DNA from: Candidatus Melainabacteria bacterium 17Bon1m
Lineage (GTDB): Bacteria; Cyanobacteriota; Vampirovibrionia; Obscuribacterales; Obscuribacteraceae
Assembly (NCBI GenBank): GCA_032128875.1
Contig: JAVLKG010000001.1
Location: 224,001 to 288,000, forward strand
Direction of reading: 5' to 3'
Length of the DNA: 64,000 bases
In this document: positions 826-23,920 of the stretch, in pieces
Position numbering within the stretch: position 1 is the first letter of the stretch
How the letters are laid out: each line of letters opens with the position of its first letter
The notes under the pieces: model-generated
What the model was told of the DNA's origin: nothing
Databases searched by the model: none
The model's input: the letters and a program-made list of their open reading frames with translations, nothing else
Program-made: the position numbers and the translations under genes

Positions 826-1683
826 ATGAAACTCAAACAACTGCCTTTAGCCCTCGCACTTGGAGGTGCACTTATGGTTAGCACTGCTGCATTTGCAGAT
901 ACTGCAAAAATTGAATTCCCTGCAGCCAGCCCGCTCTGCACTATGAAGCAGCGTGTTGGTTTGACTGATGTCGAAATCTCCTACTCCAGACCCGGAGTCA
1001 AAGGGCGCAAGATTTTCGGCGACATGATTCCTTATGGGAAGGTTTGGCGCACTGGCGCTAACGCCGCGACAAAGCTGGTCTTCAGCACGGACGTCAAGCT
1101 CAATGGGCATGATGTTCCTGCCGGTACTTACGCTCTGATGACCATCCCAGGCAAAGACGAGTGGACTGTCATCATCAACAAAGGCTCCGAGCAATGGGGC
1201 AGCTACAAGTATGACGAGAAGAACGATGTCGTCCGCTTCCAGGTCAAGCCAGTCGAGCTTGCTCATTCATTGGAAACGCTGACCTTCGATATCGAGAACA
1301 TCAAAGACGAGTCTGCTGACCTTGATTTGGTCTGGGCAACAACAAAGGTGCCGATCAAATTGGAAGTCAATTTTGTTGATAAGTTGACGAAGCAAATCGA
1401 AGCTGAAATGTCTTCGGACAAAAAAGAAAAGCCGTACTTCCAAGCTGCTAACTTCTGGTTCAACCACGACAAAGATTTGCAGCAAGCGAAGAAGTGGGTC
1501 GACGCGGCGGTTGCCGAGAAAGACGCTTTCTACATCGTGCACTTGCAAGCTAAGATTCTCGCCAAATTGGGCGACAAGGCTGGTGCATTGGCAGCGGCTA
1601 AGCACTCGACCGAACTCGCACAAAAAGCGAATGACACTGCATACGTGAAGCTCAATGAGACTCTCATCAACAGCTTGCAATAA
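826..1683 (+). CDS. DUF2911 domain secreted protein with C-terminal TPR-like helices
   Basis: Signal peptide MKLKQLPLALALGG; motifs QRVGLTDVEISYSRPGVKGRKIFG, PYGKVWRTGANAAT. Confidence 0.85.
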   Translation: MKLKQLPLALALGGALMVSTAAFADTAKIEFPAASPLCTMKQRVGLTDVEISYSRPGVKGRKIFGDMIPYGKVWRTGANAATKLVFSTDVKLNGHDVPAGTYALMTIPGKDEWTVIINKGSEQWGSYKYDEKNDVVRFQVKPVELAHSLETLTFDIENIKDESADLDLVWATTKVPIKLEVNFVDKLTKQIEAEMSSDKKEKPYFQAANFWFNHDKDLQQAKKWVDAAVAEKDAFYIVHLQAKILAKLGDKAGALAAAKHSTELAQKANDTAYVKLNETLINSLQ

Positions 1684-1689
1684 GGTGCG

Positions 1690-4314
1690 ATGAGGTTGTC
1701 CATTAGTTGGTCACTGAATTCGAAAGAGTGGCGTTGTGCATTCATCTCTTTGATGTGCGCGACGTCACTCTTTTCGAGTGTAGCGCAGAGCTATGCGGCG
1801 GTGCCCGAGGGAAGCTCGACCAACGCTGTTTCAAAAACTGTTTCTAAATCCAGCTCTGCTTTAGGAGTCAAGATGAAGAGTGATTCTCCCCAAGCGATTC
1901 TGCACGAACTGGAAAGTTTTCGGCAGATGGGCAGCGTGTTGTACATTGCCGCCCATCCCGACGATGAAAACACCGAGTTGCTTGCGTATCTAGCACGCGG
2001 GCGTAATTACCGAACCGCATACTTGTCTTTGACTCGTGGCGATGGTGGGCAGAATGTTTTGGGTGCAGATCTTGGTGCGAAACTCGGCGTCGCTCGCACG
2101 CAGGAGCTTTTGGCTGCAAGGCAGATTGATGGTGCGCAGCAATTTTTCTCGCGCGCCAAAGATTATGGATTTTCAAAAAACTATCTGGAAACGATGGAAG
2201 TCTGGGACAAGCAAGAAGTGCTGTCCGACATTGTTCGCGTGATTCGAACCTTTCGACCTGATGTGTTGATTACGCGCTTTTCGCCCAGCCCTGGTGGAAC
2301 TCACGGGCACCACACAACTTCCACAATTTTGGCGATGGAAGCATTCAAACTCGCCGGTGATGCAAATGCTTTTCCCGAGCAGAAGTTGGAGCCGTGGCAA
2401 CCGAAGCGAATCTTCTGGAATGCCTCTATCTGGCAGAAAGACAAAATAACTGACCAGACGGTTTGGAAGATTGATGCAACAGGCAATGATCCTGTTTCTG
2501 GTGAGAGCTTCCATTCAATCGCGAGCGAGAGCCGGGCGATGCACAAGACCCAAGGGTTTGATACTTTCAAGCTGCCTGGTGGTAATGGTGAAAAACGGCT
2601 TGAGTCCTTTCAGCTTTTAGATGGTGCCTCTATCGAGAAAGACATCATGGATGGTGTCGACACGAGTTGGCATCGTGTCAATGGTGGCGATGCAATTGAG
2701 AAATCAGCCAGCGAGATAATCGCGAAATTTGATATCAATGATCCAGCAAAGAGCGTTGGGGCTGTGTTGGAATTGCGCAAGCAACTGGCACAACTAATGC
2801 AGACGCCGGCTAATAGCAATGATGTTGTCTTAAAAGAGAAAGCCGAGCTTCTTGATCGTATTTTGCGGTCATGCATTGGATTGAGTTTTGAGACCACAAT
2901 TGCAAATGCGGAGATGGTTCCTGGCGAGTCAATGAAGATGCACTTGTCGGCATGGCTTAAGTCGAAATTACCTGACAAATTGCAAGTAAAATGGCTTGAT
3001 GTGCAGTTTCCCAAACTAGGCGCTAGCGACAGCACTCTTAAGGTGAATCAGACACTTGATCAACCGAGAAGCGTAGAAACTACAAAAATTCTCCCTGCAC
3101 AAACACCTCTAACTCAGCCATATTGGTTGACTTCCGAAGGGACGCCGGGAATGTTTCATGTTGATGTTCCTGCTTTGATCGGAACCGCCGAGAATTCTCC
3201 TGCGTTCCCCGTGTATGGAACCTTCCAAATTGCGGATCAAACATTGGTAGTTCATGATGAACCGCTGCAAGTGTCTACGGATTCGTTGGGTAACCGCATT
3301 CGACGTCGACTTGATGTGATACCGCCAGTCTCGTTGCATTTCCTCTCGGACGTTATAGTGATGAAGCCGGGAATGACGCGGTCTGTGGAAGTAGAGTTAC
3401 GTTCGTCGCGCGCTAATACAAAGGGCTCTCTGGAGCTGGAAGCACCTTCAGATTGGAAGATAGATCCGAAGAAGCAAACATTCAATCTAGCTGATGTGGG
3501 CGAAACCGCGAAGTTCACTTTCACTGTCACAGCGCCGAATAATGCAGCGACAACTAAGATAACGGCAAGTGCAGAAGTCGATGGCGAGCGCTATCACAAT
3601 CAAAGACAAATCGTGAGCTATGCACATTTGCCGCGCCAGCTCTTGCAACCACCCGCGGTGATGAATGCTGTCAGCTTTGATCTTGCTACTCGCGGACATA
3701 CTATTGGATACCTGCCTGGTGCCGGTGACAGTCTTGTGGAAAACCTGCAGCAGATGGGCTACGCAGTGAAAATCCTCGATGATGCCAATCTAACGGCTAA
3801 GGAGCTCGAGGGGGTCGATGCCGTAGTTATTGGTGTAAGAGCATTCAATGTGCGCAACAACATTGCTAAGGCTATGCCTGCGCTCTTCACTTATATTGAA
3901 AATGGTGGCACGGTAATTGCGCAATACAATCGGCACGACAAATTGAAGGTCGAGAAAATAGCGCCATACGAGTTGCACATTTCCAATGATCGTGTCACCG
4001 ATGAAAAGGCTCCCGTAACATTCCTTGCGCCGGACAATCCTATTTTGAATACGCCAAACAAAATCACGAATGCTGACTTTGAAGGCTGGGTTCAGGAGCG
4101 CGGATTATATTTCCCAAATCAATGGGATGAACACTTTACGCCAATCTTGGCCTTCAGCGACAAGGGCGAACTTCCGCATGCCGGCGGTCTTCTTGCCGCT
4201 CAGTACGGCAAGGGTTATTACATCTACACGGGGCTCGGATTCTTCCGACAGCTTCCAGCAGGCGTACCGGGTGCGTATCGCTTGTTTGCGAATATGGTTT
4301 CGCTAGGGAAGTAG
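1690..4314 (+). CDS. Secreted PIG-L/LmbE family deacetylase with C-terminal Ig-like (NEW3-like) and GATase-like domains
   Basis: AAHPDDE metal motif, LTRGDGGQN, RTQELLAAR, THGHH; C-terminal IGYLPGAGD, GWVQERGLYF, FFRQLPAGVPGAYRL; signal-like N-terminus. Confidence 0.85.
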   Translation: MRLSISWSLNSKEWRCAFISLMCATSLFSSVAQSYAAVPEGSSTNAVSKTVSKSSSALGVKMKSDSPQAILHELESFRQMGSVLYIAAHPDDENTELLAYLARGRNYRTAYLSLTRGDGGQNVLGADLGAKLGVARTQELLAARQIDGAQQFFSRAKDYGFSKNYLETMEVWDKQEVLSDIVRVIRTFRPDVLITRFSPSPGGTHGHHTTSTILAMEAFKLAGDANAFPEQKLEPWQPKRIFWNASIWQKDKITDQTVWKIDATGNDPVSGESFHSIASESRAMHKTQGFDTFKLPGGNGEKRLESFQLLDGASIEKDIMDGVDTSWHRVNGGDAIEKSASEIIAKFDINDPAKSVGAVLELRKQLAQLMQTPANSNDVVLKEKAELLDRILRSCIGLSFETTIANAEMVPGESMKMHLSAWLKSKLPDKLQVKWLDVQFPKLGASDSTLKVNQTLDQPRSVETTKILPAQTPLTQPYWLTSEGTPGMFHVDVPALIGTAENSPAFPVYGTFQIADQTLVVHDEPLQVSTDSLGNRIRRRLDVIPPVSLHFLSDVIVMKPGMTRSVEVELRSSRANTKGSLELEAPSDWKIDPKKQTFNLADVGETAKFTFTVTAPNNAATTKITASAEVDGERYHNQRQIVSYAHLPRQLLQPPAVMNAVSFDLATRGHTIGYLPGAGDSLVENLQQMGYAVKILDDANLTAKELEGVDAVVIGVRAFNVRNNIAKAMPALFTYIENGGTVIAQYNRHDKLKVEKIAPYELHISNDRVTDEKAPVTFLAPDNPILNTPNKITNADFEGWVQERGLYFPNQWDEHFTPILAFSDKGELPHAGGLLAAQYGKGYYIYTGLGFFRQLPAGVPGAYRLFANMVSLGK

Positions 4315-4315
4315 C

Positions 4316-6196
4316 ATGAACGGGCTGGACATATTCGTACTCATAGTGTCCATCTGCGCAATCGCATTGTATGGGGTCTGGCACACCAGAAATCGTCGCG
4401 ACCTCGATAGCTATCTCAAAGGAAGTGACCACACACCTTGGTGGGTAATCGGTATATCGGTAATGGCTACACAAGCCAGCGCGATCACCTTTTTGTCCAC
4501 CCCAGGGCAAGGATATCTTGGCGGATTGAGCTTCCTGCAAGTTTATTTTGGTGTTCCGATTGCGATGATAATCATCGCCGCCTGTTTTCTGCCGATCTTT
4601 CACAAACTACATGTCTATACAGCATACGAATATCTGGAGAAGCGTTTCGATCGCAAGACGCGTTTGTTCGGCGCAGGGCTGTTTCTCTTGCAGCGGGGCA
4701 TTGGAGCCGGTCTGACTATTTATGCTCCTGCGATTGTTTTGTCGACAGTATTCGGTTGGTCCTTGCCGCTGACCATCGTAGCGTGCGGACTTATCGCTAC
4801 TGCCTACACCGTATTTGGTGGTACCGATGCGGTTACTGTTACACAGAAGTATCAGATGGCTGTGATTTTTCTTGGTATGACGACTGCTGCAGGCATTTTG
4901 CTCTCGAAGCTTCCTGATGGTCTGACTTTCTTCGATGCGATGAATGTTGCCGGCGGATTTCAAAAGCTGAACGCTGTCAATTTGTCGCCAAGTTTGCACG
5001 AGCGGTATACGGTGTGGTCGGGATTGCTCGGCGGAACCTTCTTGATGCTGTCTTATTTTGGCGCAGATCAATCGCAGGTTCAGCGCTACCTTTCTGGGGA
5101 TTCTCTGCGTGAAAGCCGGCTTGGCTTGATGTTTAACGCGGTCTGCAAAATTCCCATGCAACTGTGTATCTTGATGCTTGGTGTGATGATGTTCGTGTTT
5201 TATCAATTCGAGCGACCGCCGCTGTTCTTTGACTCCGCTGCAAATAATTTTCTCGAGAGTCATCGAGGCGATGCTGTAGTTGCTAAGCAATTGGTTGGGT
5301 ATGAAGCCGAATTCAATAATCTGCACGATCAGGGCAAGCAGCACCTCATAAGTTGGTTGGCTGCGAAGCGCCGAGGAGATGAAAGCACTGCGACCGCTGA
5401 GTTTGTCAGTGCGGCAGTGACCCAGCAAGCAGGTGAGAAAGTGCGGTTGGCGGCGGCAAATGAGGTGACGCAGCTTCAAGCGCAAGGTGTTAGTGCTAAC
5501 ACTGCAATTGAGAAATCCACTGCAACTGAGAGATCCATTGCAACTGAGAGATCCATTGCAACGAAGGAGACTTCTGGCACGCCTTCTGAAAAGCCAGACT
5601 CCAAGAAAAGTAAATCTGTCTCTGCCACCAGTGCGGACTATGTTTTCATAACATTTATATTGCGTGAGCTCCCGCATGGTGCCATTGGTTTGTTGGTCGC
5701 GGCGTTCTTTGCCGCTGCTCTTTCGTCTAAGGCTGCGGAGTTGAATGCGTTAGGAACCTGTACCACCATAGACTTCTATCGATTGTTGATAAAACGCGAC
5801 GCCACCGATGCTGAGTCATTAGTGGCGTCGAAGCTTTTTACGGCTTTCTGGGGCGTTGTCGCTGTCTTCATTGCACTTTACGCACAGCTCTCTGAGAATC
5901 TCATTCAAGCGGTAAACATCCTTGGGTCAATTTTTTATGGTGTGCTGCTTGCGCTGTTCATCGTTGGTTTTTTCTTAAAGCGTGTTGGTGGCACCGCCCT
6001 ATTCTGGTCGGCGGTGATATCACAAACGCTGGTTTGCGTCTTGTACTTCAACCTGACGATTTCGTATCTCTGGTATCCGCTGATTGGTTGTGGCACCTGC
6101 GTGGTGATTAGTCTGCTTCTTCAGCTTGTTTTTGGTAACAACAATAAAAGCCGCAAGGATGCGGCCGTTCGTGGCGAGGTAGTGGAGGCGGCATGA
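4316..6196 (+). CDS. Sodium:solute symporter family transporter
   Basis: Many TM helices; SVMATQASAITFLSTPGQGY, YTAYEYLEKRF, SYFGADQSQVQRYL. Confidence 0.9.
   Translation: MNGLDIFVLIVSICAIALYGVWHTRNRRDLDSYLKGSDHTPWWVIGISVMATQASAITFLSTPGQGYLGGLSFLQVYFGVPIAMIIIAACFLPIFHKLHVYTAYEYLEKRFDRKTRLFGAGLFLLQRGIGAGLTIYAPAIVLSTVFGWSLPLTIVACGLIATAYTVFGGTDAVTVTQKYQMAVIFLGMTTAAGILLSKLPDGLTFFDAMNVAGGFQKLNAVNLSPSLHERYTVWSGLLGGTFLMLSYFGADQSQVQRYLSGDSLRESRLGLMFNAVCKIPMQLCILMLGVMMFVFYQFERPPLFFDSAANNFLESHRGDAVVAKQLVGYEAEFNNLHDQGKQHLISWLAAKRRGDESTATAEFVSAAVTQQAGEKVRLAAANEVTQLQAQGVSANTAIEKSTATERSIATERSIATKETSGTPSEKPDSKKSKSVSATSADYVFITFILRELPHGAIGLLVAAFFAAALSSKAAELNALGTCTTIDFYRLLIKRDATDAESLVASKLFTAFWGVVAVFIALYAQLSENLIQAVNILGSIFYGVLLALFIVGFFLKRVGGTALFWSAVISQTLVCVLYFNLTISYLWYPLIGCGTCVVISLLLQLVFGNNNKSRKDAAVRGEVVEAA
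5503..5563 (+). repeat. In-frame 18-bp tandem repeat in the symporter loop (AIEKST-ATERSI-ATERSI)
   Basis: TGCAACTGAGAGATCCAT x2 plus degenerate flanking copies. Confidence 0.85.
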
Positions 6197-6996
6197 CTTC
6201 TCCTGTTATATGTTTTGGGCAACAACCGTGTGGATTTTATCCGAAGCGGTTTTTGGTATCGAAGATTTTTACTGCACGGAGATTGCAGAAAGAGATCGGC
6301 GGCAAGATAGTATTTTTCTATCATGACAGCGATCACGATCCACGTGAGACGCGCACCATTCTGCGCCACCGCACTACAAATGATCCTGCGCAGCTCAACT
6401 TCACTTTCGAGAACAAAACGCAGCGAAAGTTCTCACCACTTTATGCAAAACGAATTCCAGGCGGTTGGCAAGAAAAGACGATTTTGCAGTTACCAAATTA
6501 CATCGACCACCCATTGATCAATATTTTCAAAGCGACGCACGTAAGTAACGTTGCTGATTTCTGCTTAGAAATGTATCGAGGCATGGGGCTGCTTGAAGGT
6601 ATTGAAGTTGTCAGATCCGGTAGCCCTGAATTCCGTCGCAGCGCCTGTGATATTACTGATTTCTATGTGGATGTTAATTACGACAACGAGATCGTCCGCG
6701 CGCGTGTTGCCGGAAACGTTCTAAAGTTGCATGAAGGCGGCAATGCATTTATCGAGCTGCCTATGGTGCCGTTTTCGAAAGAACAAATCAATCCGACGCG
6801 CGATACTCGTTTGCGCTGGATGCAGTCTGTGATTCATTGCACGCATTATATTGCGGGGGCGGGAGAGCAGGCATATTTGCACAAGGACGAAGCGCCTGAA
6901 ATTGAATTCGTAACACGGGATGAAATAGATTTGTCCGATGAGGCTTACGTAGAACTGCCATCGTCTAGTAAGAAGGAGGAAACTATTGAACATTAG
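6193..6996 (+). CDS. Compact BshC-like protein (putative bacillithiol cysteine-adding enzyme)
   Basis: GQQ, VFFYHDSDHD and YIAGAGEQAY resemble BshC GQQ, VFW..SEDHD and YIGGPGEIAY; lies directly upstream of bshB1-bshA. Confidence 0.6.
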   Translation: MTSPVICFGQQPCGFYPKRFLVSKIFTARRLQKEIGGKIVFFYHDSDHDPRETRTILRHRTTNDPAQLNFTFENKTQRKFSPLYAKRIPGGWQEKTILQLPNYIDHPLINIFKATHVSNVADFCLEMYRGMGLLEGIEVVRSGSPEFRRSACDITDFYVDVNYDNEIVRARVAGNVLKLHEGGNAFIELPMVPFSKEQINPTRDTRLRWMQSVIHCTHYIAGAGEQAYLHKDEAPEIEFVTRDEIDLSDEAYVELPSSSKKEETIEH

Positions 6997-10985: not shown

Positions 10986-11011
10986 TCCGCGAACTAAAGG
11001 TTAAAAACTCT

Positions 11012-11040
11012 TGGAAGGGGCGGCGACAACCGCCCTTTCC
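11012..11040 (+). terminator. Hairpin terminator
   Basis: GGAAGGGGCGG-CGACAA-CCGCCCTTTCC after the stop at 10985. Confidence 0.55.
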
Positions 11041-11339
11041 GCTTGCGTCTCATCGGTAAAACCCGAAGACGTCCCTCGAACGGGCGATTCCGGGGGATAG
11101 CCTCCGAACACGTACATATAGATCGCAAATACGCCGCGAACTGTCCCCCAAAGGGGTGAATCGCTCACCAGTTGACCCTCTCGGGGAAAAACACATAGGA
11201 ATGGACGTACTTCTATATAGGGCAGCGCCCATAAACCCGCGGTAGGGGGTTCTGGCGTGCGGGCAAGTTATTAGTACGAGCCTATTCAGATTCAATTTTT
11301 GCGGTCAGCCCAATTACGTGCATTGGGCGGGAGTTTCTT

Positions 11340-12560
11340 ATGCTAACTAAAAATCGAAATGAAGTCCTGTCGCTGCTGCTGACAGGCGCACGTTTGATCG
11401 ATATGCCGACCCTCGAACAAGGTTATGCTTCATCCGCCCGTTTGAGCACACCATTGCACAAAGTGCTTGTGATGCTGGGCTTCGTTAGTCAGTTCAAGAT
11501 GGACCGAGTGCTGCACGCAGAGACAATGATTCGCGTTCACGAGCTGTCGCCGGATCTGGCGGTGAAAGCACTGCGCATTGCGACAACGCAACAGCTCACA
11601 TTCGAGGAAGCGCTCGATGCGCTGGGCGACGAACACAAGAAAACGCAATTGATGCCAACTGCGTCCAACGAGATCACGAATCTTTTGGTCGAAGCAGGCT
11701 GCATCAACAACGAGCAAATAGGGCGAGCGCTCAAAACTTCGTTGGAGAACGGAATGCAAATGGGACGCGTACTTGTCTTTCATCGCGACGTCACCAGTCA
11801 GGTAATGAAGGCTGCGATTGCTTGCTGCATGTTGATGCAAGAAGAGAAGATTGGCTTGGCGTCAGCAGTTGAAGCGGTGAAGCATGTGCGCAAAACAAAT
11901 CAATCTGTAGAACAAGTGATGTTCCAACACAATATTTATCACGAAGAGCCAGGTCAGGGACCGAGGATTCATGAGCTTTTCGCAATGGCAGGTTTTGTGT
12001 CAGATACCGACTTGATGGAATGTCTCGAATTGCATGTATTGCGTGGACGGCAGATTGGTCAACTCTTTATTGAACAAGGTTTGATTAACAGTACCGTTTT
12101 GGAAAATGCGATTGTATTGCAAGGCATGGTCGCAAGTGGGGCCATCAAGGCGTATCATGCTGCAGAAGCCTTGAAGACGTCGTACAACAAAGAAGTTTCG
12201 ATCTATCAAGCTCTCGGCGAACTAAACCCCCCGGCATTTCCAGCAACGCCGAATCTCACTTTCGGTGAATTGCTTCTCTCTGCGAATTTGGTCAAGCGCG
12301 AAACGTACGACAGCTATTTCGAAGGACTCGAATTGTGTTCTCGGCAGATGGCGAAGAAACTTCTCGCCGCCGGAACGATCAACGACAAGACATGCGTCAC
12401 TGCATTGCGTGTGTTATCGCTGAACAACGAAGGATTTATCTCGAACAAAGATGCAGTCGAGATCCTTCGGCACGTGGTGTCATACGACGCGAACCTCGAC
12501 GAACAGCTTGCAGCCTGGGCTCACTTCGCACCAAATCGGATGCAATGGATCTGGCGGTAG
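11340..12560 (+). CDS. Protein built of tandem MshEN-like repeats (paralog 1)
   Basis: Repeated (I/L)GxLLxxAGxIxxxxLxxAL-type units, e.g. RQIGQLFIEQGLINSTVLENAIVLQ; full-length homolog at 22697. Confidence 0.7.
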   Translation: MLTKNRNEVLSLLLTGARLIDMPTLEQGYASSARLSTPLHKVLVMLGFVSQFKMDRVLHAETMIRVHELSPDLAVKALRIATTQQLTFEEALDALGDEHKKTQLMPTASNEITNLLVEAGCINNEQIGRALKTSLENGMQMGRVLVFHRDVTSQVMKAAIACCMLMQEEKIGLASAVEAVKHVRKTNQSVEQVMFQHNIYHEEPGQGPRIHELFAMAGFVSDTDLMECLELHVLRGRQIGQLFIEQGLINSTVLENAIVLQGMVASGAIKAYHAAEALKTSYNKEVSIYQALGELNPPAFPATPNLTFGELLLSANLVKRETYDSYFEGLELCSRQMAKKLLAAGTINDKTCVTALRVLSLNNEGFISNKDAVEILRHVVSYDANLDEQLAAWAHFAPNRMQWIWR

Positions 12561-13044
12561 AAACGATTTGCATGAGTGACAACTTCTATTTCAGATACAA
12601 ATAATAAATCCCCCCTGAAGTTTTTTGACTCATGCGGTGAGCAACGGTAGAAAGCGAGCTCGGCTATGCCTTTGAATTAAAAGCAGGCGAGTCCTTGGTG
12701 TCAGATTGAATTTCGCAAAAGGCGCTTGAAGTCAATTCGAACAAATTTGTAAGGTGATTTGTTGGCTGTCGATCTGGCGATCCCACTTTTGAGGGAACTG
12801 ACAACCCGTGGCGCGAGTTAAGTTCTGGAAGTCTAAGATCGGCTTGTGATTCGAGAGTTTTCTATATTTTCTTAGCAAGTTACCAGCGGGATAGTATTGT
12901 GGTTATAATTCTTGCCCTTGGGGTCTTTTGGCAGCAAATATATTTCCAGTGATTTTTTGCTGGCAGTTCATTTTCTTGTGTGGTTTTTTGCTCCACAAGC
13001 TCTCTTTGCGCACCCTCCATGTGCTCAGCATCATCATCATCATC

Positions 13045-13596
13045 ATGAACGAACAGAATGTGCAATCAGTTTTGCTGATAGGGAGCGGTTCAATCGCTGC
13101 TGGAAACATCGCTGGTTTGACCAGCAAGCTGTGTGAAAACTTTCGGGCTTCAGTGAGAGTTGTGTTGACGTCAGCCGCTACCAAGTTCACTTCGGTTGAA
13201 TTTATAAAATACGCTGGTGGCGCGCTGGAGGTTTTTACAGATCAAAGCACTCAGCAAATGTCGGACTTTCCGAATCACATAGCTCTCCCTGCTCAATCGG
13301 ACCTGACGATTGTCTATCCAGCAACCGCAGACTTCATCGGAAAAATGGCAAACGGTCTAGGAACTGATCTTGCCTCTACGATTATGCTTTATGCAGATCA
13401 AAACATAATTGTTGTGCCATCCATGAACGTGGAAATGTGGCGAAACAAGTTTGTTCAGAAAAATGTAAGAGCGCTCCAAGACGAGGGCATTCATATGATT
13501 GAGCCTAATGATGGTATGGCGCCATCAGTGGACGAGATAGTTGTGCAAGTGCAGAAGTATTTATCCCAAAAATTCAAAATTTACCAACAAATATAA
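13045..13596 (+). CDS. HFCD flavoprotein, EpiD/LanD-type peptidyl-cysteine decarboxylase
   Basis: GSGSIAA, NHIAL (EpiD-like His), PATADFIGKMANG, PSMNVEMW; no CoaB domain; start could lie further upstream. Confidence 0.8.
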   Translation: MNEQNVQSVLLIGSGSIAAGNIAGLTSKLCENFRASVRVVLTSAATKFTSVEFIKYAGGALEVFTDQSTQQMSDFPNHIALPAQSDLTIVYPATADFIGKMANGLGTDLASTIMLYADQNIIVVPSMNVEMWRNKFVQKNVRALQDEGIHMIEPNDGMAPSVDEIVVQVQKYLSQKFKIYQQI

Positions 13597-13609
13597 AGGA
13601 GAATTTCAT

Positions 13610-14320
13610 ATGTCAGTGAAGGCAGACGAGAAACACACAATTACTTTGGAAGTTAGAGTGCCGATAGCCGTTGACGAAGGAAAGCGAGCGAAGTTTGAAG
13701 ATGCAATGACAAATTTTATACTCGGTCACGATCGAATTCGTCCTGAACTTCATGATGCGTTAGTTGAAAGAGGTGTCGATATTAAACGCTTAAATGAGCT
13801 GTCTACTCCTGAAAAGCTGGGAGTTTGCAGATCAAAGGATGCTATGGAGTTCATTCCAACGCCTGAGCTTGTGGGTATAGGTAATAGAGCGGGAATAGAT
13901 TTTCGAGCTGGTGGAAAGCTCAACATTGAATTTGACTATTCAAATTCAAATGCTAGCAGCACGGATGTATTGGAAATGAAATTGCAATTACCATCTTCAA
14001 TTGAGGGCGTTGCTTCTGGTCAGGTTGGAAATATAATGAGGTCACTTTTTGGTGATTGTCACCTCTCAGTCAGAGCTCAGGATTATCTGCTTGCTCACGG
14101 AATTGATATTGCGGATTTGGCGGCTCAGAACATTGCGTCTTTAGGAAATGGAAGTGTTCCTCCAACTGCCCGAGTTGATAAATCTGTAGCAGATACATTA
14201 GATCAATTCGGATTGAACACCGCACGGCTAGGAAAAATTCAAGTGAAAGCTATGGCTGGTGATGCGGCACCGCTCAATGCGAATCCACCGATTGCGTGGA
14301 GCAAAACAACCTGCTGTTAA
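13610..14320 (+). CDS. Putative large-leader RiPP precursor ending PPIAWSKTTCC
   Basis: Strong AAGGAG RBS; two internally similar halves of about 100 aa; small-residue linker; C-terminal Cys; lies between the LanD-like gene and the rSAM. Confidence 0.6.
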   Translation: MSVKADEKHTITLEVRVPIAVDEGKRAKFEDAMTNFILGHDRIRPELHDALVERGVDIKRLNELSTPEKLGVCRSKDAMEFIPTPELVGIGNRAGIDFRAGGKLNIEFDYSNSNASSTDVLEMKLQLPSSIEGVASGQVGNIMRSLFGDCHLSVRAQDYLLAHGIDIADLAAQNIASLGNGSVPPTARVDKSVADTLDQFGLNTARLGKIQVKAMAGDAAPLNANPPIAWSKTTCC

Positions 14321-14328
14321 GGTGATTT

Positions 14329-15807
14329 ATGATATATCGTTCTATGGCGCCCCCGCAGTGGGGGCGCTTGCCAGGTCATATACAACTTGAGTTGGTACCG
14401 ACTCAGACACTCGTGGATGGTGAAGACACTATTCTCTTTCCGCTCCTAAAGCATTCTTGGCTCAGAGTATCAACCAAGGATCTAGAGAATGTGTTAATGC
14501 TTGATGGGCGTACTATCGACAGTATTCGCAATTCCCGCGAATCAATTAAGGACCTGATTCCGCTGTTGGATTCACTGTATTCCTCAGGTCTCTTATCCAT
14601 TGATGGACATAGTGGACTAGATGCAGAGCGTAAAGAAGAAACCTCTGGTCCGTCGACACTATTGATCAAGATGACTGGAGCTTGCAATATAGCCTGCAGC
14701 TATTGTTATGACTTTGATCAAAGTAGATGGAATGGACGTGGGAGTTCAACCCATGCGAAACATTTGATTGCTGATTCGTTTTCGGTCAATGATTCGATTA
14801 CTGTTATGTTTCACGGTGGTGAACCACTGCTGCATTTTTCTGAGATCAAAGAACTCGTATCGTTTGCAAACGAAATTGCCCATCGCGATGGAAAGAAAAT
14901 CACCTATTCCATTCAAACTAATGGATTGTTGCTGGATGAGGAGATCGTTCAATACCTTTTGAACGAGTCTTTTGACGTCGGCATTTCTTTGGATGGCCCC
15001 CTAGAAATTCATAATTTGTACCGTGTTGATCACAAAGGAAGGGGAACCTTCGAAGCATTAATAAAAAAATTCGATGAGTTTCCTGAATTTATGAGAACTC
15101 GAGTTGGATTTATGAGTGTAATTACTCAGAATTCGGTGTTTCATTTGGATCAAGTATGGCAATTCTTTCGAGATCTAGATGTTCAAACATGGAAACTGTC
15201 TCCAATGCTGCCGGAAGGTCGTGCATGTACAAATCAAGTGACTGCCAATTACATCGAGAGTTTTGTGGACTTTTTAGAAGAACGACTGCTGGAAATCATA
15301 AATGGAAGCTACCATCGCCCATACCTAATAAATCTGATTCAGGCAGTAGAACCATTTTTATCTCGTAATAGTAAGAATGTTTGTACTTCCTTTCCTTGTG
15401 GAGCTGGTCGTGATTTCGTGGTTTTAGATGCAAAAGGCGCACTGCGCTCGTGTGACTGCAGCTATCGTGATGACTTTTTTCTTGGCAATGCTGACTTTGA
15501 TTTGTTGAAGATGGTAAAGACTGAGTTTAAGAAAAGCGACCTGGCGAAGCGTGAACAGTGGCTTGTGGATTCTGAATGTGGACAATGTGTTTGGCTCCCA
15601 TTTTGCGGTGGAACTTGTCCCGCCGAAGCGCTCGCAAACACAGGAACTGTTCTAGCCGTTGACGAGCTGGAGTGCAACTTGCGAAAAAGGCTATTCCCAA
15701 GGATTGCAAAAGAAGTGTCTCAAGAAAGCTCGAACCTTCGCGAATATATTCAACAACGCCGAAGCGATAGGGCAAACTCTCTTACGAAGGTTAAGGAGGC
15801 CAGGTGA
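14329..15807 (+). CDS. Radical SAM/SPASM peptide maturase with N-terminal RRE-like domain
   Basis: CNIACSYC, FHGGEPLL, QTNG, ISLDG; SPASM C..CGAG...SC and CGQC-x5-C-x3-C...C; N-terminal extension of about 100 aa ending LDSLYSSGLL. Confidence 0.9.
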   Translation: MIYRSMAPPQWGRLPGHIQLELVPTQTLVDGEDTILFPLLKHSWLRVSTKDLENVLMLDGRTIDSIRNSRESIKDLIPLLDSLYSSGLLSIDGHSGLDAERKEETSGPSTLLIKMTGACNIACSYCYDFDQSRWNGRGSSTHAKHLIADSFSVNDSITVMFHGGEPLLHFSEIKELVSFANEIAHRDGKKITYSIQTNGLLLDEEIVQYLLNESFDVGISLDGPLEIHNLYRVDHKGRGTFEALIKKFDEFPEFMRTRVGFMSVITQNSVFHLDQVWQFFRDLDVQTWKLSPMLPEGRACTNQVTANYIESFVDFLEERLLEIINGSYHRPYLINLIQAVEPFLSRNSKNVCTSFPCGAGRDFVVLDAKGALRSCDCSYRDDFFLGNADFDLLKMVKTEFKKSDLAKREQWLVDSECGQCVWLPFCGGTCPAEALANTGTVLAVDELECNLRKRLFPRIAKEVSQESSNLREYIQQRRSDRANSLTKVKEAR

Positions 15808-16646
15808 GGATACAGGGCGATAATTGGGATCACATGATTTATGAGCGTTTAGGTAGCGATGGAAATCTCGATTCTTCTTTCTCTCACCTTGATATGGTGC
15901 ATTTGACGGTCGAGATGCTCGGAGAATCTCTTCCCACGTATTTGCGTGAGAATATTTCGAAAATCCAACGAGTCGTGTCTCAAAAAGATTATGCCGATTG
16001 CGATCTAACACATGTAATTATTGATTGGCTTGCTCGCTACTTTAAAGACATGCACGATTCAATGAAATATCCGTACCTAAGTAATCACGAAGAATGGCAA
16101 CATTTAACAGAGACAAATGCAAATATTCCAAATAGTGGCTGTGTATACGTAACATTCCAACTTGGTTTTCCACTTTTAGTGCCGATATTACTGGCGGATT
16201 TATTGAATTCTCCTGTCCGTGCACTTATTCATGATCAAAATCCAAAGGTCGCAAGCTTCTATCAATCGGTTCGGCATAATTTGGATTTTGCGTATGTGAA
16301 CTATTTAGATCCTTATGAGCAGATATCCTTTTTAAAGAGTGGTGGTCTTTTAGTTGCAAATATAGATACGGCTTATCCAGGCACAAGAGTAGAATCAATG
16401 CCGATTTTGAATTCCTGTATTCGTGTCCCATCTGGATTCATTCCACTGGCAAAACGAGCTAAAGCAGCTATATGTCCCGTTTCATTAGTTGCGAACGAAG
16501 GACGCCTTGAGCGTCACTTTGGCTTGCCTATTTGCAGCCAGAAGAACTCGATATTCGAAATACTTAAGTCGCTCTCTGGTTTCTTTGAAACAGTAATCAG
16601 AAAACATCCGGAGCAATGGCTAGCTTGGTCAAGTCTGGAGTTTTAG
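15804..16646 (+). CDS. LpxL/LPLAT-like acyltransferase (divergent)
   Basis: LKSGGLLVANID, VPSGFIPLAKRAKAAICPV and C-terminal IRKHPEQWLAW are typical of lipid A lauroyltransferase-like proteins; GTGA overlap with the rSAM stop. Confidence 0.65.
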   Translation: MRIQGDNWDHMIYERLGSDGNLDSSFSHLDMVHLTVEMLGESLPTYLRENISKIQRVVSQKDYADCDLTHVIIDWLARYFKDMHDSMKYPYLSNHEEWQHLTETNANIPNSGCVYVTFQLGFPLLVPILLADLLNSPVRALIHDQNPKVASFYQSVRHNLDFAYVNYLDPYEQISFLKSGGLLVANIDTAYPGTRVESMPILNSCIRVPSGFIPLAKRAKAAICPVSLVANEGRLERHFGLPICSQKNSIFEILKSLSGFFETVIRKHPEQWLAWSSLEF

Positions 16647-16671
16647 CATTCAATTAAAAAACGCAAGTTGC

Positions 16672-17196
16672 ATGCAGCACGACAGAGCGATTAGAGAATT
16701 AGTGGTGTACTTTTATCCTGAATTATTTGTCAAACGAATTGGATTTGGCTGCGAGTCTGATGTTTTTCTTGGCACTGATATCTACAGCCACTTGAAGGTC
16801 AAGTATTTCAAATATGAGAGTGACTTTTGTCGTCATTATTTTGGAATACCACTTTTATTAGAAGCATTGAGCGACCTTGGCTATAGTGACTACGTTGACA
16901 TTCCTGGAATTGTCGCCGTTAACAAGGAACTCCTCGCAATCGTGTCACCGTACATATCCGAACAGCAGCGATTTGATTCTAAAGAGTTTGAGTCAAGTAA
17001 GTTGAGAGCGGTAACGGCATTGTTGTGTGCGGCGGGCAGAGTTGTGACATTAACACCTGAAAAGATTGCATTGAAGTTCAATACTCAAGCACACTCAATG
17101 AATGCCTTGGTTGAAGATTTTGTCTTTTCAGGAGTGGATTTCTCGGGCGACAATCTAATGTTTGACGGTGTTCGCTGGTGGGCCATTGATTTCTAG
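16672..17196 (+). CDS. Minimal protein-kinase-like (RIO/APH-like) protein
   Basis: Gly-loop IGFGCESDVF, LKVKYFK, catalytic-like DFSGDNLMF, ends WAIDF*. Confidence 0.55.
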   Translation: MQHDRAIRELVVYFYPELFVKRIGFGCESDVFLGTDIYSHLKVKYFKYESDFCRHYFGIPLLLEALSDLGYSDYVDIPGIVAVNKELLAIVSPYISEQQRFDSKEFESSKLRAVTALLCAAGRVVTLTPEKIALKFNTQAHSMNALVEDFVFSGVDFSGDNLMFDGVRWWAIDF

Positions 17197-17244
17197 CATT
17201 TGTGTCTTCGTGAAATCGTATGATTGAGAGTGCATAGGTATTTG

Positions 17245-17604
17245 TTACCCGATTACAGTTGCCGCGAGCTTTGCACACAGGAACGCTATCGCGATCGCCT
17301 GCTGCTCACTTGTCTTCGTGCGTTTCGCTTCCTTCAGTATCCTCCTAATGCATGCAATTTCTTCACCACAAGGGAACCGAATACACAGCTCGTGTTCAGC
17401 TGCTGTCAGCACTTTGATATACCGCTTCTCGAAACGAGTCAACTTTGGTCGCGATTCAATTTCTTCTCTTATCGCACGGAGTTGTTGCAGTTCTCTCGTC
17501 GTGAGTCGGTTCGGCGGCTCGAGAGATTCCTGCAGGTATTCTTCATCTGTGACAGCGTACGAGCGACCATACGCGGTCGCATAGTTATGCGAAAAGATTT
17601 CCAT
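17245..17604 (-). CDS. Hypothetical protein
   Basis: 119-aa ORF; no recognised motif. Confidence 0.45.
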   Translation of the reverse strand: MEIFSHNYATAYGRSYAVTDEEYLQESLEPPNRLTTRELQQLRAIREEIESRPKLTRFEKRYIKVLTAAEHELCIRFPCGEEIACIRRILKEAKRTKTSEQQAIAIAFLCAKLAATVIG

Positions 17605-17706
17605 GTCAGACAGTTCTACTTATTAGGGGAAGGCACGCCTGGTGCTGGACGTTAGCACCTTAGCGCGGCAATTTTCAAAAAATCTTGAAATTCCCCAAAG
17701 CGAGAA

Positions 17707-18063
17707 CTAGTTACATTTATCGCCCGTCAGATTAATCCTTGGACCGGCTTGTGCGTCTTCGACAATTTCCATTTTGCAAAGACCATTCGGATTTCGATTA
17801 TTCGCGGCATCGCGCATTGAACTCCAGAGTTGTCTTTCTTGATTGGCGAGTTCATTGAATATGCCTTGAGAGCGTTGGGTCGCGGCGGGGTCGCCGTTCA
17901 GAATTGCCTCGCCGTTTTGACGAAAGTCGTTGAAGTAGTTAGTTGCACCGGGCAGGCTGAGCGTACACTCGTTGATGAGCCGATTAGATGCGTCCCGATT
18001 GCCCGCATTCAATTGTGTTGCGATGGCGTCAATTTGTCCGGGCGAACAAGATCTGTCTGACAT
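17707..18063 (-). CDS. Hypothetical protein
   Basis: 118-aa ORF with GAGG RBS. Confidence 0.55.
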   Translation of the reverse strand: MSDRSCSPGQIDAIATQLNAGNRDASNRLINECTLSLPGATNYFNDFRQNGEAILNGDPAATQRSQGIFNELANQERQLWSSMRDAANNRNPNGLCKMEIVEDAQAGPRINLTGDKCN

Positions 18064-18196
18064 GAGAAACCTCTAGAAGCTGGCAAGAGTAGTCTTTGCC
18101 CCAACCTACCATGCGGGTATGACATTACCTTGACACGCGTGAATTGGACGTGAACGGCGCGTCGGCGGTGCAAAGGCGGTGAGTTTATGAGTGGAC

Positions 18197-18268
18197 GGGC
18201 GGCATTAAGCCGCCCCTACAAGACCGTTGTGGATAAGCGAGACGGGCGATGCATGGCATCGCCCCTAC
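18197..18268. repeat. Two REP-like palindromes
   Basis: GGGCGGCATTAAGCCGCCCCTAC; GGGCGATGCATGGCATCGCCCCTAC. Confidence 0.75.
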
Positions 18269-18324
18269 GGTTTTAAGGAGAGCCCAGAAGACTGCTATGC
18301 TTGCTCAGGAAGTCCCCTTCTTCT

Positions 18325-18363
18325 CTTCTTCTTCTTCTTCTTCTTCTTCTTCTTCTTCTTCTT
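18325..18363. repeat. (CTT)13 microsatellite
   Basis: 13 perfect CTT units counted directly. Confidence 0.95.
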
Positions 18364-18384
18364 GCTTTGGAAACCGGAAAACTG

Positions 18385-19524
18385 ATGCCTCGCAATTCCA
18401 TCCTTGCTCTCTTACTAGCGCTGTTCACCGCGCAGTTTCTCTCCTCCTGCTCAATTATGCCGCCGCCACCTGATGATACGAAGGGTGTCGAAGAGTGGCT
18501 TGTGATGCCTATTTTTTTTGCAACCAATCGAGCCTTTGCCGGTAAGAACGGAAGTGTTGACTATTCCGAGGACGAGAGTCCGAACGGTCTTTTGTTTGGC
18601 GTCAAGAACGTGGTAGTGCCCTTTCCCGTTCGTACGCCACTCGAAAAGACGACTGAAGAGCGTATGCAATGGCAGCGTTTCAATATGGACCATGACTCGA
18701 AGAAGCTGAAAGTCATTCCTCCTCCCCCTGCGCTCTGCAAAGTCACAGATTCGACGTTTTCCAAAGAAGAAATGGTTGCGGCGCTGGATGCGTACCGAAA
18801 GAGAGCAGGAAGTCTTGAATCAGTAGTGTTCGTCCACGGATGCTGTGCAACTTTTGAAACATCGGCTCTGAGAGCGGCTAAGCTTGCGACACACATGCAG
18901 GTTCCGGTGCTTTTATATGATTGGGTTTCACCAAAGGGGTTCAAAAACTACCTGAAGAACGAGACTTTGGCAGAGCAGTCTGTCGATGGTTTTCTTTCCG
19001 CTCTGAATGCTTCTGAGAAAATCCTGGGTGCCAAAAATATGACCTTGGTTGGACACAGCATGGGTGCGTTCATTCTTGACCATGCTCTCTTGCGCAGGAA
19101 GGCACAGGGCGACGCCGCAGCTCCGGAAAAATTCAGCGAGTTGATAATGTCTAATGCCGATACCGATGGAAAGACCTTTCTGAATCATGCGCGCGATTTT
19201 GCCTCGAATGCGAAAATCACGCGAGTCTATTTTTCCAGATCCGATGACCGGCTGAAATATTCTGCGTACTCTCATGGGGATTTTAAGCGGCTTGGTCTGC
19301 CAGGAACGCTTGCTCAAGCGTTGGCTAAAGTTCCTGGGATACAAATGATTGACGTAACCGCAAGCAAAACGAATCACGAGCTCCCATTTTGGCTCGTATC
19401 TAACATGCACCGCTTCGGGAATGTCGGACCAGTCAACGATTTTGTTCTGAATAAGAACGCTAATGGACTTTTTGAATTGGAGCGAACAGTGTCACCACTT
19501 ATGGAGCCTTCCGGCTTAGAGTGA
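18385..19524 (+). CDS. DUF900-family alpha/beta hydrolase lipoprotein
   Basis: Lipobox-like FLSSC, IFFATNR, VFVHG, GHSMG nucleophile elbow. Confidence 0.8.
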   Translation: MPRNSILALLLALFTAQFLSSCSIMPPPPDDTKGVEEWLVMPIFFATNRAFAGKNGSVDYSEDESPNGLLFGVKNVVVPFPVRTPLEKTTEERMQWQRFNMDHDSKKLKVIPPPPALCKVTDSTFSKEEMVAALDAYRKRAGSLESVVFVHGCCATFETSALRAAKLATHMQVPVLLYDWVSPKGFKNYLKNETLAEQSVDGFLSALNASEKILGAKNMTLVGHSMGAFILDHALLRRKAQGDAAAPEKFSELIMSNADTDGKTFLNHARDFASNAKITRVYFSRSDDRLKYSAYSHGDFKRLGLPGTLAQALAKVPGIQMIDVTASKTNHELPFWLVSNMHRFGNVGPVNDFVLNKNANGLFELERTVSPLMEPSGLE

Positions 19525-22696: not shown

Positions 22697-23920
22697 ATGC
22701 TTACAAAAAATCGCGATAACGATGTCCTGTCGTTGCTTTTGACAGGCGCGCGGATTATCGAGCTCAGCACGCTTGAGGAGGGATATGCATCCTCTGCTCG
22801 CCTCAGCACGCCTTTGCACAAGGTTTTGGTCATGCTCAGGCATGTCAGTCAGTACACGATGGACAAGGCTTTGGCGGCAGAGACCATGGTACGGGAGAAT
22901 CAGATTTCGACGGACATTGCCGTTAAAGCTCTTCGTATTGCGACCACGCAACAGCTCTCTTTCGAGGATGCTCTGGCATCGTTGGGCGATGAGCACAAGA
23001 AAACCAACAATATGCCGAGCGCGTCCAACGAAATTTGTGACCTGCTCGTTGAAGCTGGAATCATCAATAACGAGCAGATTGGTCGCGCCTTGAGCACGTC
23101 ACTCGAAACCGGCATGCAGATGGGACGCATTCTGGTGTTCAATCGTGATGTCACGACCAACGTTATGAAAGCAGCGCTTACGTGCTGCATGATGTTGCAG
23201 GATGAAAAGCTCGGATACGCATCAGCTGTCGAGGCGGTGCAGTCTGTTCGTAAGACAAATAAGACTGTGGAAGAAACATTCTTCAGGCTCAATATCCATC
23301 ACGAAGAGCCCGGTCAAGGTCCAAAATTATACGAATTGTTCGCAATGGCTGGTTTTGTGTCGGACACTGACATGATGGAGTGTCTCGAGATTCACGTTTT
23401 GCGTGGAAGGCAACTAGGTCACATTTTCATTGAACAAGGTTTTGTGAAACATGAGGCTGTTGAAAACGCCATTACTTTGCAGGGCATGATCACTAGTGGT
23501 GCAATCAAGGCATATCAGGCTGCGGAAGCGCTTAAGAACGCTAACTTGAAGCAGATATCGATCTATCATGCGCTTGGCGAATTGGACCCACCGGCGGTGC
23601 CACCCACACCCACGTTGACGTTCGGACAGCTTTTGATTTCTTCCGGGATTGTTCATCCCGAGATGATGGAAGGTTTGATGGGCGGCATGGAACTCAATGC
23701 CCGTCAGCTTGCGAAGAAGGCATTGTCTGCGGGATATCTCACAGACAAGTCGTGTGTTACAGCGTTGCGTTGTTACTCGCTAAACAGTGAAGGATTCATC
23801 TCGAACAAGCAATGCGCTGAAATTCTCAAACAATGTGCGACACATGATTTGAACCTTGACGAACAGCTCGCTAAGGGCGGGCATTTTGTGCCGAATCGAA
23901 TGCACTGGATTTGGCGTTAG
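22697..23920 (+). CDS. Protein built of tandem MshEN-like repeats (paralog 2)
   Basis: Colinear homolog of 11340-12560 (shared GYASSARLSTPLHKVLVML, ELFAMAGFVSDTD, PNRMxWIWR). Confidence 0.7.
   Translation: MLTKNRDNDVLSLLLTGARIIELSTLEEGYASSARLSTPLHKVLVMLRHVSQYTMDKALAAETMVRENQISTDIAVKALRIATTQQLSFEDALASLGDEHKKTNNMPSASNEICDLLVEAGIINNEQIGRALSTSLETGMQMGRILVFNRDVTTNVMKAALTCCMMLQDEKLGYASAVEAVQSVRKTNKTVEETFFRLNIHHEEPGQGPKLYELFAMAGFVSDTDMMECLEIHVLRGRQLGHIFIEQGFVKHEAVENAITLQGMITSGAIKAYQAAEALKNANLKQISIYHALGELDPPAVPPTPTLTFGQLLISSGIVHPEMMEGLMGGMELNARQLAKKALSAGYLTDKSCVTALRCYSLNSEGFISNKQCAEILKQCATHDLNLDEQLAKGGHFVPNRMHWIWR

Follow-up and report, generated by a model that had tools for sequence, protein, structure and literature searches.

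The gene cassette considered here, a run of five genes designated g1 to g5, occupies positions 13045-17196 of a 64,000-nt stretch of the Candidatus Melainabacteria bacterium 17Bon1m genome (the window; all positions are coordinates within it, with the plus strand as read), and its closest described counterparts are pathways that mature ribosomally made peptides and proteins. In precursors of the NHLP/Nif11 type, large conserved leaders derive from standalone proteins, either Nif11 or nitrile-hydratase-like. Lipolanthines and lipoavitides are characterized by lanthipeptide synthetase-type dehydration and by an acylation linked to GNAT or to polyketide and fatty acid synthases (PKS/FAS). In quinohemoprotein amine dehydrogenase, the gamma subunit is matured by the radical S-adenosylmethionine (rSAM) enzyme QhpD together with a flavoprotein, and the motif of darobactin reads W-S-K. 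The Trp-Lys link of darobactin is described as the work of an rSAM enzyme (PMC9055067; PMC10288494), and a further report assigns W-G-K to WgkB and W-P-R to WprB and introduces a 'single WxR/K motif' precursor family (PMC11851443). Finally, the inactive kinase homologues TvaE and KinH are reported to form an aminovinyl-cysteine (AviCys)-type synthetase with the HFCD (homo-oligomeric flavin-containing Cys decarboxylase) enzymes TvaF and KinI, while the dehydration step of thioamitides and kintamdin requires an active kinase of its own and a HopA1-like lyase (PMC9415263).

The cassette looks like an undescribed family of the type that makes peptides synthesized by the ribosome and modified after translation (RiPPs). 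In particular, the reading that we favour, with moderate confidence, is that it would decarboxylate the C-terminal Cys of the g2 product and add a radical cross-link to the tail of this protein, a chemistry that we infer.

The cassette and its putative precursor

The five open reading frames (ORFs) lie on the plus strand with intergenic gaps of 13, 8, -4 and 25 nt, and an AGGAG sequence is found 8 nt upstream of the g2 ATG. The features are the following.

13045..13596, plus strand: g1, HFCD-family flavoprotein (PF02441), LanD-like peptidyl-Cys decarboxylase candidate, 183 amino acids (aa)
13610..14320, plus strand: g2, putative substrate/scaffold protein with no family match, 236 aa, ending in PIAWSKTTCC
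14297..14317, plus strand: putative core tail of g2, W230-S-K-T-T-C-C236, consensus W-x-[K/R]-x-T-C-C
14329..15807, plus strand: g3, rSAM/SPASM enzyme of peptide-maturase type (PF04055), 492 aa, extended at the N-terminus by about 105 aa
15804..16646, plus strand: g4, LpxL/LPLAT-like protein without the canonical catalytic motif (marginal PF03279), 280 aa, GTG start
16672..17196, plus strand: g5, truncated protein with a kinase-like fold (AlphaFold2 model and structure matches), 174 aa

The GC fraction is 0.428 at 13045-17196 versus 0.491 for the remaining window. In particular, the cassette is the lowest-GC 4.15-kb part of the window, since only one of 240 sliding windows of 4152 bp is as low and this one overlaps the cassette. 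An initial annotation, made from the letters of the DNA, had described five tightly packed co-directional genes in AT-richer DNA, the second ending in WSKTTCC, and had noted that the cassette encodes no protease or exporter; ORF calling, gap lengths and base composition agree with the first of these statements, the end of g2 was confirmed, and no protease or exporter was found in the cassette or adjoining it.

The arrangement recurs elsewhere. The genes g1-g2-g3-g4 are found in the same order and orientation in all four loci recovered from other sources (26-42% identity, tblastn), namely those of Virgisporangium ochraceum (L002), of two Streptacidiphilus species (L003 and L004) and of a metagenome contig (L005). 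As this order is repeated in four unrelated loci, it is not a product of chance.

The second gene, which is directly upstream of the rSAM gene, has no Pfam or NCBIfam family match. Its relatives were collected in an alignment (A2) of 28 sequences, that is, the window copy, 23 database proteins and the copies of the four loci, with the shortest N-terminal fragments (P0024 and P0025) excluded. The tail W-x-[K/R]-x-T-C-C ends 20 of the 28 rows, and W, K/R, T, C and C are invariant in every one of these 20 complete tail-bearing proteins, with Arg instead of Lys at position -5 in some members. The 15-25 residues preceding the tail form a linker of variable length and sequence. The stretch formed by the first 215 residues or so is conserved throughout, with 26-47% identity to the window copy (98% in P0001), and C73 and C150 are among the nearly invariant residues of this domain. 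The initial annotation had made a conserved tail and the accompanying enzymes the expectation for any homologue. This holds for g1, g3 and g4, which stand alongside in the four loci, and for the 20 rows with a tail; the remaining rows depart from it, two with aberrant C-termini (P0019 and P0020) and six with no tail at all.

The AlphaFold2 model of g2 is confident overall (predicted local distance difference test score, pLDDT, 82.1; predicted template modelling score 0.78), with the linker below 50 (residues 218-222) and the tail at 60-65. Moreover, the two halves of the protein are homologous according to a profile comparison (hhalign 95.9%, E 6e-9), a repeat that BLASTP of the two halves did not find. 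No significant match to the fold was found in the PDB, the best Foldseek E being 0.06 and the best VIA Z 4.5 (root-mean-square deviation 4.2 over 89 residues). Tautomerase/MIF-like beta-alpha-beta cores were tried as fold relatives and set aside, their likeness being a loose topological one (Z up to 4.5). The confident fold and the homologous halves imply that g2 is not a long unstructured peptide. In other words, g2 is, as modelled, a folded scaffold of two repeats (approximately residues 1-215), to which a flexible linker attaches an invariant core of seven residues. Judged by its sequence, it is the likely substrate of the cassette, which retains one half of the 'giant precursor' initially proposed; the other half, a giant peptide, gives way to a duplicated folded domain with a short core and with relatives that lack it.

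Two features of these data are those expected of known pathways. As in RiPP systems generally, a precursor gene with a conserved region, here the invariant tail, is found beside tailoring enzymes, and this synteny is kept in 4/4 loci. In addition, an aromatic-x-X core motif, typical of three-residue cyclophane systems, is present as W-x-[K/R] in 20/20 tails.

The rSAM enzyme and the flavoprotein

The g3 protein matches Radical_SAM (PF04055, E 2.7e-13), and its translation contains a CxxxCxxC-type motif, CNIACSYC, and a Cys-rich C-terminal CGQCVWLPFCGGTC block. Seventy-seven NCBIfam rSAM models match it, none above its cut-off, the top scores being those of PapB (156.8 bits), anSME (156.6), a nif11-type model (138.3), QhpD (135), HxsB (131.9) and SCIFF (128.3). 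The cyclophane-synthase models score 125.9 bits against a cut-off of 450 (DynA), 113.5 against 445 (YhhB), 98.9 against 310 (GrrM/OscB) and 95.2 against 650 (DarE); such values weaken the argument for placing g3 in these families, not the possibility of a cyclophane-synthase-like activity. The alignment extends from end to end with the models of PapB (positions 3-327 of 330), DynA, YhhB, QhpD and the SCIFF maturase, and the best PDB matches are anSME (4k36), ChlB (9gm3) and CteB (5wgg). These sequence features place g3 among the rSAM/SPASM enzymes of peptide-maturase type, as initially annotated.

The alignments of CteB and QhpD to g3 start at residues 66-71 (the latter spanning 66-441), and the N-terminal 108-114 residues of four g3 members gave no match to PqqD or to any other relevant Pfam family even at E<=10. 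In the proposed pathway, the scaffold domain of g2 would present the flexible tail to the enzymes, probably by way of the 105-aa N-terminal extension of g3. The latter would then abstract a hydrogen atom and make one cross-link in the tail. The invariant W-x-[K/R] equals motifs that are cross-linked by rSAM enzymes, and for this reason a Trp-to-Lys/Arg link is proposed for g3; the likeliest product would be a three-residue carbon-carbon cyclophane, comparable to those at W-S-K in darobactin, W-G-K in tryglysin and W-P-R in WprA. A thioether formed from the penultimate Cys would be a less likely alternative.

The flavoprotein g1 is placed in Pfam Flavoprotein (PF02441) with an E of 1.9e-21. In the PDB, the sequences that match it best are 7cfu, EpiD (3qjg and 1g63), 6jls and MrsD, with CoaBC and AtHAL3a ranking lower, and the initial assignment to the LanD decarboxylases is in line with this closeness to EpiD and MrsD among the peptidyl-Cys decarboxylases of the PDB. 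The His of 'NHIAL' is aligned by phmmer to the active-site His of EpiD ('NHVDI'), and the HFCD motif PSMNxxMW is present in the window copy as PSMNVEMW. The four homologues from outside the window have His for Asn in this motif (PSMHxRMW; alignment A7) and an N-terminal extension of about 14 residues, to which the Streptacidiphilus proteins add a C-terminal extension rich in His, Asp and Arg. The scores of g1 are below the curated NCBIfam cut-offs for CypD (25.2 versus 215 bits), CoaBC (116 versus 219.7) and CoaC (82 versus 261.4), so that g1 falls in no curated subfamily. Two other PF02441 genes, one of them in a 438-aa open frame of CoaBC size, are found on other contigs of the genome, and g1 is accordingly an extra paralogue. 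Its context, that is, the adjoining g2 with its invariant Cys-Cys and the presence of other flavoproteins for coenzyme A synthesis, makes g1 a candidate decarboxylase of C-terminal peptidyl-Cys. In the proposed pathway, it would oxidatively decarboxylate the terminal Cys of g2 to an amino-enethiol.

The LpxL-like and kinase-like proteins and the pathway as a whole

The fourth gene is a conserved core member, syntenic in 4/4 other loci. Its product matches Lip_A_acyltrans (PF03279) over the C-terminal half only, with 23.2 bits versus a cut-off of 22.3, and PF03279 is also found in 28 of the 30 ESM Atlas clusters nearest to it (score 0.95, about 200 shared features), which makes an LpxL-like fold family credible. 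PF03279 does not reach the actinomycete homologues at E<=0.01, at which only PatA-like genes on other contigs match; hhalign of the g4 family with these PatA-like proteins covers the 86 C-terminal columns alone, with 34% probability. Searches of the PDB with the single sequence and with a profile returned nothing relevant. H-M/A/T-G-N-W/Y-D is found in the PatA-like proteins of these actinomycetes, whereas a conserved H-x4-[D/E] is present in 0/5 g4 members (regular expression on alignment A3): the window copy, L002 and L005 have none, and L003 and L004 have one each at a non-conserved column. The invariant motifs of the family are instead QLG[FY]xLL, H[DE]QNP and NxDTxYPGT. By motif spacing only, we infer that QLG[FY]xLL stands at the expected place of the catalytic motif, with an invariant Gln for the His. 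A forced global hhalign with the PatA-like proteins, aimed at the catalytic His, reached 4% probability in the N-terminal half and was discarded.

The fold family thus fits the lipidation by an LPLAT enzyme that was initially suggested, but the lack of a conserved H-x4-D/E leaves lipidation by the usual LPLAT mechanism unsupported. In the proposed pathway, g4 would be an LpxL-fold protein devoid of the dyad, acting as a scaffold, as a cyclase or in a non-canonical transfer, and probably with no lipid attachment of the usual kind; this role would be non-canonical but essential.

The last gene, g5, has no match in Pfam, NCBIfam or PDB sequences. A single-sequence search retrieves g5 itself only, and a profile search adds four relatives. 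In the other loci, searching with a profile detects g5 in L002 and L005 and not in those of the two Streptacidiphilus species, over some 5-6 kb downstream. The AlphaFold2 model has a pLDDT of 76 (55-58 across the first 40 residues), and the Foldseek matches listed (ranks up to 50) are all kinase-like, including RIO, Bud32, APH, choline-kinase and homoserine-kinase folds, with RIOK3 as the best (E 1.8e-4). VIA gives Z values of 9.1 for APH(2''), 8.5 for RioK1, 8.3 for Bud32 and 7.8 for the lexapeptide kinase LxmK (9dk1), the matches extending over residues 1-174 and so reaching the DFG-like 'DF' with which the protein ends. The ESM Atlas also indicates a kinase-like protein. The Gly-rich loop GxGCExxV, K44 (the beta-3 Lys) and D173 (the DFG-like Asp of the terminal D173-F) are invariant in the family. 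The catalytic-loop D156 and N161 are present in the window copy only (1/5), the other four having Ala, and Ser or Gly, respectively. As the protein ends at the DFG-like motif, it is without everything that follows this motif in a complete kinase. On these sequences, g5 is probably non-catalytic in most relatives, and the analysis would fit an inactive HFCD-partner role better than that of a Ser/Thr kinase. It would therefore take part in the proposed pathway as an accessory, mostly non-catalytic decarboxylase partner like TvaE/KinH, not as a dedicated Ser/Thr kinase. Of the kinase that was initially named, the fold is retained; a Ser/Thr kinase activity fares poorly, given the catalytic Asp/Asn in one member of five and a gene missing from two of the four other loci.

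These data bear directly on the complete scheme of the initial annotation, in which g5 phosphorylates Ser/Thr of the tail, g4 acylates Lys or the N-terminus, g3 cross-links and g1 decarboxylates. This scheme would account for the LpxL acyltransferase fold family of g4, for the window copy of g5, which keeps the Gly-rich loop, the Lys, Asp-x4-Asn and the DF motif on a kinase-like fold (with a spacing that we take to be like that of canonical kinases), and for the invariant Thr at -3 and Lys/Arg at -5. Nevertheless, it appears improbable. H-x4-[D/E] is conserved in no g4 member, the place of the catalytic His would be held by the invariant Gln of QLG[FY]xLL, a position that no significant alignment spans, and the actinomycete homologues are below PF03279 detection at E<=0.01. 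Similarly, the catalytic residues of g5 are replaced in 4/5 proteins (Asp by Ala, Asn by Ser or Gly) and the gene was not found in 2/4 other loci. Furthermore, Arg at -5 in some members argues against N-acylation of Lys as a conserved step, and no acyl carrier protein or acyl-activating gene is present in the cassette.

A different use of the same proteins would be that g2 serves as a scaffold for a small molecule, its terminal Cys-Cys, or perhaps Thr-Cys-Cys, being converted into a small sulfur heterocycle that is then released, much as other products derived from amino acids are assembled on a peptide scaffold. Dithiolopyrrolones of the holomycin type are reported to arise from two cysteines with the phosphopantothenoylcysteine (PPC)-decarboxylase-like HlmF and the N-acyltransferase HlmA (PMC3826145). 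The cassette similarly combines an invariant C-terminal Cys-Cys with an HFCD flavoprotein and an acyltransferase-fold protein, and an rSAM-made radical at C-beta of a Cys could conceivably attack the enethiol carbon; a pyridine-nucleotide-disulphide oxidoreductase is also encoded in the Virgisporangium locus (Pyr_redox_2, 401 aa, L002 positions 13542-14744, plus strand), about 2 kb downstream of g5. However, the oxidoreductase is found in just 1/5 loci, the other holomycin enzymes (acyl-CoA dehydrogenase, GMC oxidoreductase and thioesterase) are not present, g4 is without the usual catalytic motif, and the invariant Trp and Lys/Arg would be left with no role, so that we regard such a heterocycle as very improbable. 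An equally slim chance is given to a joint version, a ribosomal counterpart of the holomycin route, in which the terminal Cys-Cys would become an ene-dithiol or dithiolopyrrolone-like warhead on a Trp-Lys-cyclised peptide. The steps of this version would be HFCD decarboxylation, an rSAM-made carbon-carbon bond from C-beta of the penultimate Cys to the enethiol carbon, and handling by the acyltransferase-fold protein.

Returning to the decarboxylated and radically cross-linked tail that we favour, a number of observations weigh against it. As regards the cross-link, the thioether former PapB scores slightly above the cyclophane formers DynA and DarE (156.8 as compared to 125.9 and 95.2 bits), and no RiPP recognition element (RRE)/PqqD domain was detected in g3. 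As regards the enethiol, LanB (PF04738) and HopA1 (PF17914) have 0 matches in the genome of the window, which is 93% complete, in a search that did not include LanM, LanKC and LanL. A full-length LanB is found beside the cassette in one of the five loci (L005), and the three actinomycete genomes have LanB genes on other contigs. A canonical Thr-derived aminovinyl-cysteine ring is consequently left unexplained by the conserved gene set, and the AviCys route that the initial annotation had evoked loses ground, as no dehydratase for the canonical route was found in the genome. The conclusions on g4 and g5 rest on shallow alignments (five sequences each, as for g1), and the g5 family consists of five known members. 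Furthermore, neither a protease nor an exporter is conserved within the cassette or in the flanks examined in the five loci, which is unusual for a secreted RiPP. Finally, g2 is conserved along its entire length, and six of the 28 A2 rows (P0014, P0015, P0016, P0021, P0022 and P0023) stop a few residues past the domain; these tail-less relatives indicate that the domain has a role of its own.

The last of these observations are those to be expected if the modified Cys-Cys/Trp tail were never cleaved and folded back on the g2 domain, generating a redox, metal-binding or catalytic protein-derived cofactor. The tail-less proteins would then represent a domain that exists in its own right, and the missing protease and exporter, the confident fold of g2 (pLDDT 82), its whole-length conservation and the nearly invariant C73 and C150 would find an explanation, as would the score of g3 with the QhpD model (135 bits, residues 66-441). 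The N-terminus of g2 also shows, by visual inspection only, no hydrophobic stretch resembling a signal peptide. On the other hand, the variable and poorly predicted linker (pLDDT <50, with the tail at 60-65) resembles a leader-core junction, neither an active site nor a relative by fold can be recognised for the domain (best Z 4.5), and RiPP pathways commonly use proteases that act in trans. An uncleaved cofactor-bearing tail is therefore a rather unlikely alternative, yet one to be taken seriously beside the RiPP-type maturation that we prefer.

Distribution, genomic setting and comparison with known systems

The cassette is very rare and conserved across phyla. A scan with a search pattern, which restricts its sensitivity, of one genome per species gave 67 matching stretches and three loci (V. 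ochraceum, Streptacidiphilus anmyonensis and S. melanogenes), and a metagenome scan gave one (L005). At the protein level, a word-based search of 5.8 billion proteins returned seven g2 relatives at E<=0.001 among 694 candidates, and a profile search of 1.84 billion representatives returned 21 clusters (50% identity) at E<=0.001, 20 of them at E<=1e-10. Judging by database names, there are members in Streptomyces arboris, in S. cyaneofuscatus and in a Streptomyces sp., all of them called 'hypothetical protein'. No g2 was found in 60 related genomes, 12 of them of the same genus, in 400 other genomes of the phylum of the window, in 400 further genomes from the class to which the Virgisporangium genome belongs, or in plasmid records (tblastn). 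Taken with the low GC, this patchy spread over the phyla is indicative of a horizontal acquisition of the cassette.

In L002, a DDE transposase fragment (6000-6659, minus strand) is found about 0.7 kb upstream of g1, with a SARP-type regulator further upstream. In L005, the full-length LanB (1097 aa, minus strand), a Cupin_8 (JmjC-like) protein and an S-adenosylmethionine methyltransferase are encoded directly upstream of the cassette (1163-6135); these may represent an extension of the pathway in that organism or a neighbouring cluster.

In the window, the flanking genes have no relation to peptide maturation according to Pfam and NCBIfam. The upstream neighbours encode a protein with a cyclic di-GMP (c-di-GMP)-binding motif, an AmiA-like amidase and a NUDIX protein, and the downstream ones two small proteins without family, a DUF900 hydrolase, an esterase and an ion channel. 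The two small genes are convergent ORFs directly downstream of g5 (17245-17604 and 17707-18063, both minus strand; 119 and 118 aa), with no Pfam or NCBIfam match, and are not kept beside the cassette in the other loci. Two paralogous genes about 10 kb apart (11340-12560, 406 aa, and 22697-23920, 407 aa, both plus strand) bracket the region; they share the same weak Pfam matches (FumaraseC_C and DUF4388), and the former matches the NCBIfam MshE-related c-di-GMP-binding motif with 66.6 bits versus a cut-off of 38. The gene of the DUF900 alpha/beta hydrolase (18301-19524) starts with about 12 Leu codons (18301-18372), a simple trinucleotide repeat whose other frames give poly-Phe, poly-Ser or poly-Arg, and contigs of public runs break or skip at 18312-18372. 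A scan for promoter-like and terminator-like sites gave 7 and 8, versus 8.9 and 4.5 expected, respectively, none of them convincing at the operon ends.

Three public runs labelled as transcriptomic RNA-Seq carry contigs of 22-39 kb that span the whole multi-gene region (window 11000-19000) and share their layout with the DNA run of the same sample; they seem either to contain genomic DNA or to be wrongly labelled. Multi-gene contigs of this length are consequently no demonstration that the cassette is transcribed.

The initial annotation knew of no described pathway with this combination of enzymes, and none was found in print. Specifically, open-access papers and bioRxiv main texts gave no description of the gene combination or of the tail, a listing in a genome-mining compendium being possible; NCBIfam has no model for g2 and none that g1, g3 or g4 matches above its cut-off. 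If the favoured reading is true, a folded two-repeat precursor of about 215 aa with an invariant seven-residue core would be unusual, and flavin-dependent Cys decarboxylation would operate together with rSAM/SPASM cross-linking, a pairing that was not found reported. Two pseudo-enzyme-like partners, an LpxL fold without the dyad and a minimal kinase fold, would appear to have been repurposed. Moreover, the cassette would offer a further route to strained Trp-Lys/Arg and enethiol-derived rings and a test of the capture of the enethiol by HFCD enzymes without a dehydroamino acid. As it is present in actinomycetes that can be cultured, namely V. ochraceum NBRC 16418, Streptacidiphilus anmyonensis and S. 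melanogenes and, by database names, also Streptomyces arboris and S. cyaneofuscatus, product and function are directly testable.

Among known systems, lipolanthines and lipoavitides resemble the decarboxylated, cyclised and acylated ribosomal peptide that was initially envisaged, but no dehydratase was found for the cassette and its sole acyltransferase-like protein is without H-x4-D/E. NHLP/Nif11 precursors share with g2 a conserved protein-like N-terminal region, a short C-terminal core and, in P0014-P0016 and P0021-P0023, the existence of core-less relatives. Unlike them, g2 has a far larger leader (about 215 aa), which is internally duplicated and has a confident fold of its own, no Gly-Gly cleavage motif or nearby peptidase-containing ABC exporter, and a core that is invariant, not hypervariable. 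The QhpC/QhpD system similarly places a related rSAM/SPASM enzyme and a flavoprotein beside a polypeptide with Cys and Trp that may remain part of a protein; in the cassette, however, the flavoprotein is an HFCD decarboxylase and not a monooxygenase, and there are no genes for dehydrogenase subunits, for a protease or for an exporter.

The AviCys machinery of thioamitides, kintamdin and class V lanthipeptides is nearer, with its HFCD flavoprotein, its precursor ending in Cys and its adjacent degenerate kinase-fold protein, and LxmK of the Lxm system is among the structural matches of g5. Nevertheless, neither the pair of active kinase and HopA1 lyase nor a LanB was found in the genome of the window; g5 is much shorter, ending at the DFG-like motif, and is not constant across the loci; the invariant Thr of g2 is only two residues before the terminal Cys; and the rSAM/SPASM and LpxL-like proteins are core members of this cassette.

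As for the rSAM systems that act on W-x-K/R, g3 differs from them in being below all model cut-offs and in scoring slightly higher with thioether formers, and no HFCD decarboxylase was found reported with them in our literature search. In addition, the motif of g2 is a single one, located at the end of a 229-residue protein and followed by T-C-C. The likeness extends to the enzyme, as g3 aligns over its full length with the DynA, YhhB, GrrM/OscB and DarE models, and to the substrate, as an invariant W-x-[K/R] stands beside an rSAM/SPASM enzyme in the cassette just as in the triceptides and in the systems of DarE (W-S-K), WgkB (W-G-K) and WprB (W-P-R). Like g3, DarE is described as having anSME as its most similar relative among solved or known enzymes (PMC10288494).

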